DNA from: Escherichia coli
GTDB taxonomy: Bacteria; Pseudomonadota; Gammaproteobacteria; Enterobacterales; Enterobacteriaceae
NCBI RefSeq assembly: GCF_024298765.1
Contig: NZ_CP101210.1
Length of the DNA: 64,000 bases
Reading direction: 5' to 3' (one strand)
Within the stretch, counting starts at the first letter, position 1, and the number at the start of each line of letters is the position of its first letter. The notes beneath the pieces are model-generated. The model saw nothing but the letters and a program-made list of their open reading frames with translations, ran no database searches and had not been told where the DNA came from. Of the stretch, positions 18,511 to 20,516 are shown one piece after another. The position numbers were made by a program, and so were the translations under genes.

Positions 18511-19499
18511 AACACCCGGTAACCACCGTAAGCATCGGCCTGAAGCACACCGCTGTAACCGGCCAGGTGATTTTGTGGATGGATACCTTTCTGGTCCGGA
18601 CTGTACGCGAACCAGACCGCCGGGGGCATCTGTGAACCGGCGTTACGGTCATCACGGACGTAGACCCACAGCCGGGCTGTCCGGGTTTTACCGCTGCCCG
18701 GCTCCTGGACCGGGACGGGGATATCATCAGCATGGACTTTACCGGGCATCAGCACATACTGGCGCAGGACGTCATACAGCGGCTCCAGCAGTTCAGCAAC
18801 AGCACTGGTCCAGCGCCCCAGCGTGGCGCGGCTCACCTCTACACCCTGACGACGGTATATTTCTGACTGGCGGTATAACGGCAGATGGTCTGCATACTTC
18901 CCGGTGACGACATGGGCCAGAAGCCCCGCTCCGGCATAGCTGCGTGCAATGGGTTTTGAAGACACCGGTGCCTGCACGATATGGTCGCACCGGCAACAGG
19001 CCAGTTTCGGACGTTGTGTTTCGATAACCTTAAAGGCGCTGCTGATAAGCTCCAGTTGCTCTGACACATCACATCCCAGAGAACTGAGTTCGCCACCACA
19101 GGCCGGGCAGCATTCCTCTTCCGGCCGGATAACCCGGGTTTCACGTGGAAGTGAGGCCGGTAACGGTTTACGGGCTGAAGACTGGCGCAGGGCGGATGGC
19201 AGTACCGGATCATACTGCTCACCCAGCGTTTCTGCCATTTCTTCCTGAAGTGCGCTGATTCGCTCCTGTGCTTCCTGTATCTGCCGTTCGGTTTTTGCGC
19301 GAAGTTTTTCTGAGCTTTTACCGAACTGCATACGCTGCAGTTTCGCAACCAGCGCCTTCAGCCGGTTGATTTCAGAAGCATAAGCCGCCACCCGCTGTGA
19401 GAGCAGGCAGTTGTATTCGGCCATCTGGCGGATGGTGTCCTGTTGCGTCTGCAACAGTGCCCGCAGGCGGGCATTCTCATGAGCAAGTGAGGTGTCCAT
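18511..19499 (-). pseudogene. IS66-family transposase TnpC, C-terminal third missing
   Basis: 334 codons versus 523 in copy 2; similarity to copy 2 stops at 18511. Confidence 0.7.
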
Positions 19500-19518
19500 A
19501 TCCTCACTTTACAACGGG

Positions 19519-19866
19519 TTATATGCGGATTCCAGCGCGTTCCGTTCGTTTCGGGTGCTTCCAGTTGATGCCCTCAAGAAGCATGGACAACTGAGCCGGA
19601 GTAAGGTGAACCTTTCCATCGCGGGTGACCGGCCAGACGAAGCGGTCCCGCTCTAGGCGTTTGGTGAAGAGGCACAGTCCGTCGCTGTCAGCCCACAACA
19701 CTTTTATCTGGTCACCCCGGCGTCCGCGGAAGATGAACAGGTGTCCGGAGAACGGGTCATCCTTCAGGACGTTCTGAACTTTTGACGCCAGGCCGTTAAA
19801 GCCATTTCGCATATCGGTGATACCTGCAACCAGCCAGATACGCGAACCGGCAGGGATAGATATCAT
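19519..19866 (-). CDS. IS66-family TnpB (orf2)
   Basis: 115 aa MISIPAGSRIWLVAGITDMRNGFNGLA..., near-identical to 54165..54512. Confidence 0.8.
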   Translation of the reverse strand: MISIPAGSRIWLVAGITDMRNGFNGLASKVQNVLKDDPFSGHLFIFRGRRGDQIKVLWADSDGLCLFTKRLERDRFVWPVTRDGKVHLTPAQLSMLLEGINWKHPKRTERAGIRI

Positions 19867-20516
19867 CAGTGGCTGCTCCCTTTTATTTCACGGATAAGTG
19901 TCTGTAATAACGCCGGCGTCAGTTTACCTTTCAGCCTGAGAGTTCCGGCCGGCAGAACCAGCTCACAGCACAGACTGTCGGACAGTGTATTTGTCTGTTC
20001 AGGTATCTGCACTGGTGCCGGGATTTTATTATCCGGCTCCGGAGTTAACGTCACGGGAAGTAGCGATGTTTCATGTTCGCCGGGCGACTGCAGGCCGCCG
20101 TTACGCCAGAGACGCCGCCAGTTAAAGAGCAGGTTATCGTTGATTCCGTTCTCACGAGCTATTTGTGCGACACAGGCACCGGGTAAAAGAGTTTGCTGAA
20201 CAAGTCTCCATTTAAACTCCGGTGAAAATTGGTTCCGGCGGGTTTTCTCTGTTTTCACAGTCTGAGTTACTGTCGGGGCTGAAGGGTATCGCCCCGGGAA
20301 CAGAGCCCGGGCCAGTTGCACGCAGGAATATTCCCCGGAAAGAGGCCAGTCAGTGAATACCTGGTGAAATCGCCTCACCAGAGAAAAAATGGCGGTTTTG
20401 CTGATACCGGTCTGCGCAGAAATGCGCGGGTACGACAGTGACTCGTCAAATCTCAGTTGTAGCACACGCAGGATCAATTCCGGATTGTCTGCCAGTACCG
20501 CCTTTCGTGCATTCAT
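19866..20516 (-). CDS. IS66-family TnpA-like (orf1) with divergent N-terminal half
   Basis: C-terminal ~120 aa identical to 54512..55189 (QPGACVAQIARENGINDNLLFNWR...LIREIKGSSH); N-terminal ~95 aa unrelated between the two copies. Confidence 0.6.
   Translation of the reverse strand: MNARKAVLADNPELILRVLQLRFDESLSYPRISAQTGISKTAIFSLVRRFHQVFTDWPLSGEYSCVQLARALFPGRYPSAPTVTQTVKTEKTRRNQFSPEFKWRLVQQTLLPGACVAQIARENGINDNLLFNWRRLWRNGGLQSPGEHETSLLPVTLTPEPDNKIPAPVQIPEQTNTLSDSLCCELVLPAGTLRLKGKLTPALLQTLIREIKGSSH

Follow-up and report, generated by a model that had tools for sequence, protein, structure and literature searches.

Two IS66-family elements in one Escherichia coli genomic island differ by a left-end cassette and very probably belong to a single recombining complex

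We analysed two IS66-family insertion sequences (ISs), here copy 1 and copy 2, in a 64,000-nucleotide stretch of Escherichia coli DNA (contig NZ_CP101210.1; hereafter the window), a chromosomal island with fec, pgtPCBA and fimbrial genes. Both encode a long form of the accessory protein TnpA, which the initial annotation had described as chimeric, with identical C-terminal and unrelated N-terminal halves. The two open reading frames (ORFs) in question, 19866-20516 (216 amino acids, copy 1) and 54512-55189 (225 amino acids, copy 2), are present as described. All features of the two copies lie on the minus strand unless stated otherwise, and coordinates are those of the window.

Copy 2 (52544-55242, 2,699 bp) is a complete element of the ISCro1 type with tnpA, tnpB and tnpC. 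Its left inverted repeat (IRL; GTAACCGGCTCATTTAAACCGTCTGG, 55217-55242) and right inverted repeat (IRR; GTAAGCGGCTCGTCAGAACCGTATTG, 52544-52569, read inward on the plus strand) agree at 19 of 26 positions, and an 8-bp target-site duplication, ATATCTTT, flanks the element on the left (55243-55250) and on the right (52536-52543). With these boundaries, the whole of the long tnpA ORF lies inside a properly transposed element. Directly downstream of tnpA, with which it shares a single base (54512), is tnpB (54165-54512; 115 amino acids; PF05717, E = 2.8e-40), followed by tnpC (52574-54145), which encodes a DDE transposase of 523 amino acids with the LZ_Tnp_IS66, zf-IS66, DDE_Tnp_IS66 and DDE_Tnp_IS66_C domains.

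Copy 1 (18511-20601) is of the IS679 type; its left end is intact and its tnpC is truncated. The IRL (GTAACCGTCTCATTTAAACCGTCTTT, 20576-20601) differs from that of copy 2 at one of its first 24 nucleotides. The originally annotated span, 18511-20516, therefore takes in the ORFs of copy 1 but misses its left end. The tnpB gene (19519-19866; 115 amino acids; PF05717, E = 1.1e-39) again shares one base with tnpA (19866), and about 330 N-terminal codons of tnpC remain (18511-19499), containing the first three of the four TnpC domains, with DDE_Tnp_IS66 matched only at model positions 1-139 of 284. The element stops abruptly at 18511 against an IS3-like (ISEc31) fragment, itself interrupted by an IS30 element; the tnpC ORF continues into the IS3-like sequence, and the Prokaryotic Genome Annotation Pipeline (PGAP) calls the gene a pseudogene.

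Family membership is supported by several features. Both TnpA proteins contain the core HTH_Tnp_1 domain (PF01527; E = 1.6e-16 and 3.1e-15), beginning at residue 93 in copy 1 and 102 in copy 2, and both score far above the curated 150-bit cut-off of NF038385, a 190-position model named 'IS66-like element accessory protein TnpA' (279 bits over positions 2-189 and 296 bits over positions 1-189). Neither matches the model for the IS21 transposase IstA (NF033546), even at E ≤ 10. Imperfect terminal repeats of the IS66 type (about 25 bp, beginning GTAA(G/C)CG) are found at both ends of copy 2 and at the left end of the truncated copy 1. Exact 8-bp duplications also flank related elements from E. 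coli (L004 and L009) and Serratia (L006), while at the junctions of a further E. coli element (L008) a 9-bp string is repeated, leaving a one-base ambiguity in the element start.

On the basis of PGAP labels, copy 1 can be named an IS679-type and copy 2 an ISCro1-type element. In strain XDL, whose sequence matches the window at 99.6% over 20 kb, the copy 2 locus is labelled 'IS66-like element ISCro1 family', and copy 2 has the inverted repeats and target-site duplication of an intact element. Copy 1 has full-length relatives of 2,704 bp in L002, L008 and L009. The tnpC genes of L008 and L009 are labelled 'IS679 family', their 5' parts are 96% identical to copy 1, and both elements are flanked by duplications; copy 1 shares the three-gene layout of IS679, and its TnpA shows 94-96% identity to the TnpAs of elements so labelled. 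Unlike IS679, it is truncated in tnpC at 18511. Its tnpB and tnpC are 95.4-95.8% identical to the 'IS679'-labelled copies, versus 95.9-96.8% to the ISCro1 copy in the window. Both types are widespread. A search for the copy 2 element at a coverage of at least 80% returned 1,398 plasmid records, and plasmids of E. coli, Shigella, Salmonella and Klebsiella carry it very often; the 5' part of the IS679 type was found in 654 out of 5,426 complete genomes of E. coli. The 'chimeric' proteins are thus the long-form TnpA accessory proteins of two widespread, named IS66 elements and are not peculiar to the window. As objects they are ordinary, belonging to elements already catalogued and to a curated equivalog family.

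We compared the two window copies with complete elements from E. coli (L002, L004, L008 and L009) and Serratia (L006) and with several partial elements. Using blastn, 18511-20183 aligned with 53157-54829 over 1,673 nucleotides (94.4% identity, gapless, E = 0), and no further match between the copies was found upstream of 20183/54829, where nucleotide identity is about 38%. A global alignment of the two copies gave 35-40% identity over the first ~400 nucleotides past the terminal repeat, 75-85% up to position ~660 and 95-100% beyond. Counted from the left end of the element, the IS679 and ISCro1 types fall into four strata. The left terminal repeat (positions 1-24) is 96% identical between types. 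Positions 25-413, comprising subterminal DNA and the coding sequence of the N-terminal helix-turn-helix domain (the N-domain), are about 38% identical, and constitute a type-specific cassette at 20184-20577 in copy 1 and 54830-55218 in copy 2. Positions 414-600, which encode the tnpA core helix-turn-helix and linker, are 77.5% identical; this intermediate stratum lies at 19998-20183 in copy 1 (about 78% identical to 54644-54829 in copy 2), and differences within it still follow the 5' type. From position 601 to the right end, covering the 3' end of tnpA, tnpB and tnpC, identity is 93-97%.

Past position 660, all pairs of E. coli elements are 95-98% identical, regardless of 5' type. In a four-taxon test (L002 and L008 versus copy 2 and L004), type-congruent sites numbered 164 up to position 413 and 27 in the stretch 414-599, but only 3 past position 660, where 24 sites back the two conflicting groupings. 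Downstream of about position 600, variation is therefore independent of the 5' type and itself patchy; over this part, right inverted repeat included, the variants show 95-97% identity. The last type-linked site is element position 599, which corresponds to 54644 in copy 2 and 19998 in copy 1. The initial annotation had suggested that distinct IS variants recombined, exchanging the DNA-binding part of TnpA. This suggestion is borne out by the steps in identity from ~38% to ~78% to ~96%, by the confinement of most type-congruent sites to positions up to 599 and by a change of phylogenetic grouping at about position 400. Two boundaries thus emerge: a grouping switch near 400, and the end of type linkage at 599. 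The former coincides with the boundary between the N-domain and the HTH_Tnp_1 core.

L004 (CP057984, 3201-5896) carries a third 5' variant. This element is 2,696 bp long with an 8-bp duplication and a 3-nucleotide deletion in tnpA. Its cassette shows 85% identity to the ISCro1 type, and two small patches of IS679 type elsewhere in the element, at positions 434-446 and 581-587, point to further exchange.

The two halves of TnpA are less sharply contrasted than had been proposed. The last ~120 residues are not shared exactly, as 97 of 122 match and the unbroken identical run comprises only the final 38. Nor are the N-terminal halves unrelated: BLASTP pairs the two proteins from residue 15/17 onwards (59% identity overall, E = 5e-79), the N-domains are 27-37% identical and NF038385 spans both proteins end to end. 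Each extension does contain a helix-turn-helix domain, as had been suspected, and the two are homologous to each other.

This domain resembles the N terminus of the IS21 transposase IstA. Four IstA N-terminal fragments (P0146, P0156, P0161 and P0163) match both NF033546 and positions 5-75 of NF038385 (E = 1e-11 to 1e-16), and a 'WPLP' linker motif is common to these fragments and the long TnpA N-domain. The IstA-like region covers the N-terminal ~75 residues (20292-20516 in copy 1 and 54935-55159 in copy 2). From these similarities, we interpret the long IS66 TnpA as an IstA-like helix-turn-helix domain fused to an ordinary IS66 TnpA. Since the long TnpAs miss the IS21 model, the relationship is one of domain homology rather than membership of the IS21 family. 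In IstA the helix-turn-helix is joined to a DDE catalytic domain, whereas in IS66 it is joined to a small accessory protein. Literature searches on IS66 tnpA/tnpB/tnpC, on mosaic IS66 elements and on a link between IS66 TnpA and IstA returned nothing relevant, and the only matches to the long TnpA in a PDB sequence search were to antibodies, at chance level (E ~1).

We next considered which cassette is ancestral. Among 58 long TnpAs, all distant members (from Pantoea, Klebsiella, Enterobacter, Kosakonia and Symbiopectobacterium) have N-domains 51-61% identical to that of copy 2 and only 22-33% identical to that of copy 1, and their C-domains are about equally far from both copies (51-65%). The IS679-type N-domain occurs in this set only in the E. 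coli IS679 group and in one Salmonella protein (P0013). As the distant relatives carry the ISCro1-type N-domain, the ISCro1 type is ancestral in the family, and the IS679-type cassette is the outlier, derived and imported. An exhaustive HMMER search with the IS679-type N-domain against 1.84 billion representative proteins revealed no closer donor; after the IS679 group itself, the best matches were 28-43% identical.

Two relatives place the first boundary. The Salmonella element (P0013; L013/L014) carries an IS679-type cassette at 75-82% nucleotide identity, whereas at positions 414-600, in tnpB and in the tnpC fragments its identity to either E. coli type is about 72-81%. Over the cassette, the element from Serratia clusters with ISCro1 (63-76%); at positions 414-600 it forms the outgroup (53-56%). 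From these placements it follows that the groupings switch at about position 400.

Taken together, these observations argue strongly that the window holds two distinct, catalogued IS66 elements that form one recombining complex, mosaic through cassette replacement and homogenisation, and we consider this reading very probable. In the sequence of events that we infer, an old cassette replacement at about position 400 would have brought the IS679-type N-module, from an unsampled source, into the common ancestor of IS679 and its Salmonella relative. More recently, RecA-dependent homologous recombination or gene conversion between co-resident IS679 and ISCro1 copies would have homogenised everything past about position 600. 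The two types often share a cell, as they do in the window. With tnpB equally far (about 80%) from its Salmonella and Serratia counterparts, the recent exchange may have carried an ISCro1 backbone into IS679 or run the other way.

Mosaic or hybrid ISs that arise by homologous recombination between related copies are a familiar outcome in IS biology. The present case shares with them a sharp step in identity, a boundary that falls at a domain boundary and at conserved sequence, and partners residing in the same replicon. It differs in that the exchanged piece is left subterminal DNA plus the DNA-binding domain of an accessory protein, rather than the transposase gene. The pair is thus a small, clean case of recombination boundaries meeting protein-domain boundaries in a mobile element, and it draws attention to the little-studied extra N-terminal domain of the long IS66 TnpAs as the component that varies.

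The source of the imported cassette allows a different account, in which an istA gene of the IS21 family, and not another IS66 element with a long TnpA, was the direct donor of the IS679-type N-domain. Similarity scores lend this some plausibility: the IS679-type N-domain is 37-46% identical to the IstA N-terminal fragments (scores 109-118), about as close as to any other long TnpA (the best, P0142, is 40% identical with a score of 126, and the ISCro1-type N-domain scores only 80), and the same fragments match NF038385, as noted above. However, the IS679-type N-domain falls short of the IS21 model, and its length, its junction with the core and the conserved palindrome of its leader are all as in ISCro1-type elements; identities of ~40% are too low to fix a branching order. 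We therefore regard direct capture from istA as quite improbable.

Rapid divergence in place, with both N-termini inherited vertically from one element under diversifying selection on the DNA-binding domain and without recombination, is less probable still. The N-domains are homologous and co-linear, as this explanation would expect, and within the ISCro1 lineage the N-domain does evolve somewhat faster than the rest (85% versus 96% identity between L004 and copy 2). However, the two types differ at a proportion of 0.74 of the synonymous sites of the N-domain, which amounts to saturation, and of 0.42 in the rest of tnpA. Non-coding positions 25-82 have diverged to the same extent as the N-domain (38% identity), yet tnpB and tnpC differ at only ~4% of nucleotides. 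Selection on the protein cannot yield this pattern; the segments must have had different histories. The IS679-type cassette is moreover found in the Salmonella element, which is otherwise only ~75-80% identical. Divergence in place is thus effectively refuted.

Least credible is an annotation artefact, in which upstream ORFs were wrongly joined to a short, internally starting TnpA: the short TnpAs of 133 and 141 amino acids in the window's other IS66-family elements and the ambiguous tnpA start of copy 2 (55189 or 55159) could be read in this way, but the reading frame is continuous through the junction in both copies and their relatives, the N-domain is conserved as protein, and NF038385 covers both halves of an ORF that lies wholly within the inverted repeats. 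Specifically, the frame is unbroken across the junction of N-domain and core in 58 full-length homologues, and between ISCro1-type variants, the Serratia one included, the ratio of non-synonymous to synonymous substitution rates (dN/dS) of the N-domain lies at 0.16-0.38, which shows that this domain is under purifying selection. The continuous frame, the low dN/dS and the span of the model together indicate that the extension is coding, and a mis-called upstream ORF, which the initial annotation had named as the finding that would overturn its proposal, is contradicted by the dN/dS and by the curated full-length family model. Since the short TnpAs elsewhere in the window lack the N-terminal segment, it counts as an addition to the usual family form.

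Several points weigh against the recombining-complex interpretation or the names attached to it. The full-length elements in the comparison were few, which leaves the number and order of recombination events under-determined, and the intermediate stratum (positions 414-599) could derive from a third donor rather than from the original divergence of the lineages. The names IS679 and ISCro1 are taken from PGAP labels. IS679, reportedly described in the E. coli plasmid pB171 by Han et al. in 2001, has a reported length of 2,704 bp, which agrees with that of the copy 1 relatives. ISCro1, which has undergone expansion in Citrobacter rodentium ICC168 (PMC3072379), is given as 2,824 bp in one paper (PMC8764528), versus 2,699 bp for copy 2.

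The near identity of the shared backbone also affects how such elements are named. Since tnpB and tnpC of IS679 and ISCro1 are ~96% identical, naming by transposase, as PGAP does, can contradict the tnpA type, and these elements will be cross-assigned in read mapping and IS typing. L002 (NZ_CP011019, 4001-6704; full-length, 2,704 bp) is an example: its tnpA is of the IS679 type, yet its tnpC is labelled 'ISCro1 family', not 'IS679 family'. Its TnpA is annotated as WP_000993925.1, the accession also given at the copy 1 locus in strain AR_452, with a difference of two residues in translation. No matching 8-bp duplication was found in the flanks of L002.

The group II intron E.c.I3 has been reported to target IS679 specifically (PMC3522654). 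In the IS679-like element of Salmonella, we observed a group II intron ORF (RVT_N, RVT_1, GIIM and HNH domains) within the tnpC region (L013, 5557-7227; L014, 6311-6841).

As to function, the N-domain would be expected to bind DNA at or near the left end, or to autoregulate. We also considered whether the cassette is a self-contained specificity or 'immunity' module, in which the N-domain putatively binds the adjacent subterminal DNA (positions 25-82), so that the two co-vary; such binding might, for example, autoregulate tnpA or mark the left end. The swapping of immunity regions among lambdoid phages offers an analogue. The edges of the cassette coincide exactly with the inner end of the 24-bp left inverted repeat and the junction between the domains; this, and the co-residence of both types in the window, is consistent with the proposal, which we nevertheless hold to be doubtful. 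If true, ISs with the same transposase and terminal repeats could co-exist in one genome while being separately regulated.

Just upstream of the tnpA start of copy 1 is an inverted repeat, AATGTCC-N15-GGACATT (20521-20549), which recurs in copy 2 as TGTCCAT-N8-ATGGACA (55167-55188). Repeats of the form TGTCC(AT)...(AT)GGACA were also observed at ~3252-3279 in L006 and ~3968-3996 in L014. The leader repeat, with arms of 7-11 bp and loops of 7-15 nucleotides, is kept in all four lineages although the surrounding cassette is only ~38% identical, and the z-scores of its RNA fold are -0.6, -2.7, -3.7 and -2.4 in the four. Its 3' arm lies across the probable ribosome-binding site, and for this reason the repeat may act as a hairpin that blocks translation of read-through transcripts, or as an operator. 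A scan of both left ends for sigma-70 promoters and terminators found nothing, and the idea of a promoter inside the leader hairpin accordingly went without support. A subterminal motif, TGTTTCC, noticed by eye in both types at different offsets, was dropped as it is absent from the Serratia element.

The leader also bears on where tnpA begins. In copy 1, an ATG within the 5' arm of the repeat opens a mini-ORF of 11 codons on the minus strand (20512-20548; MSIFAVKGHLR followed by a stop), whose TGA shares bases with the start codon of tnpA (ATGA). In ISCro1-type elements, the corresponding ATG is in frame with tnpA (MSIIFNGHYR-MKHRT...), and this is the origin of the ambiguity in copy 2, in which a start at 55189 gives a TnpA of 225 amino acids and the alternative at 55159 one of 215; the NF038385 match to the longer form opens at residue 13. 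In the Serratia homologue (L006), GTG rather than ATG stands at both candidate starts, and the start chosen by PGAP is the upstream one.

The surroundings of the two copies are themselves composite. Around copy 1, the window and strain AR_452 are colinear over 6018-27246 (99.8% identity), and the counterpart in AR_452 is a tRNA-Leu-associated island (fecIRABCDE, pgtPCBA). Colinearity ends at 27246; from 27247 onwards the window has a different arrangement, as found in strains XDL and APEC IMT5155. This change at 27246/27247, near IS remnants, shows the island itself to be mosaic. Abutting copy 1 is a 59-amino-acid ORF on the minus strand (20598-20777) with no Pfam match and no annotation in AR_452, whose TAA stop codon comes from the opening bases of the IS left repeat (cagTAAccg).

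Copy 2 adjoins a nest of IS66-family sequences (~55393-58830). Beside it lies the right-end remnant of one element (~55393-55468), followed by a plus-strand element (55539-56284) that encodes the 133-amino-acid TnpA and a TnpB and ends before any tnpC, and by a minus-strand element (56380-58775) that encodes the 141-amino-acid TnpA, a TnpB and a 530-amino-acid TnpC. Several more 'CGCTTAC' ends were observed at ~52390-52450.

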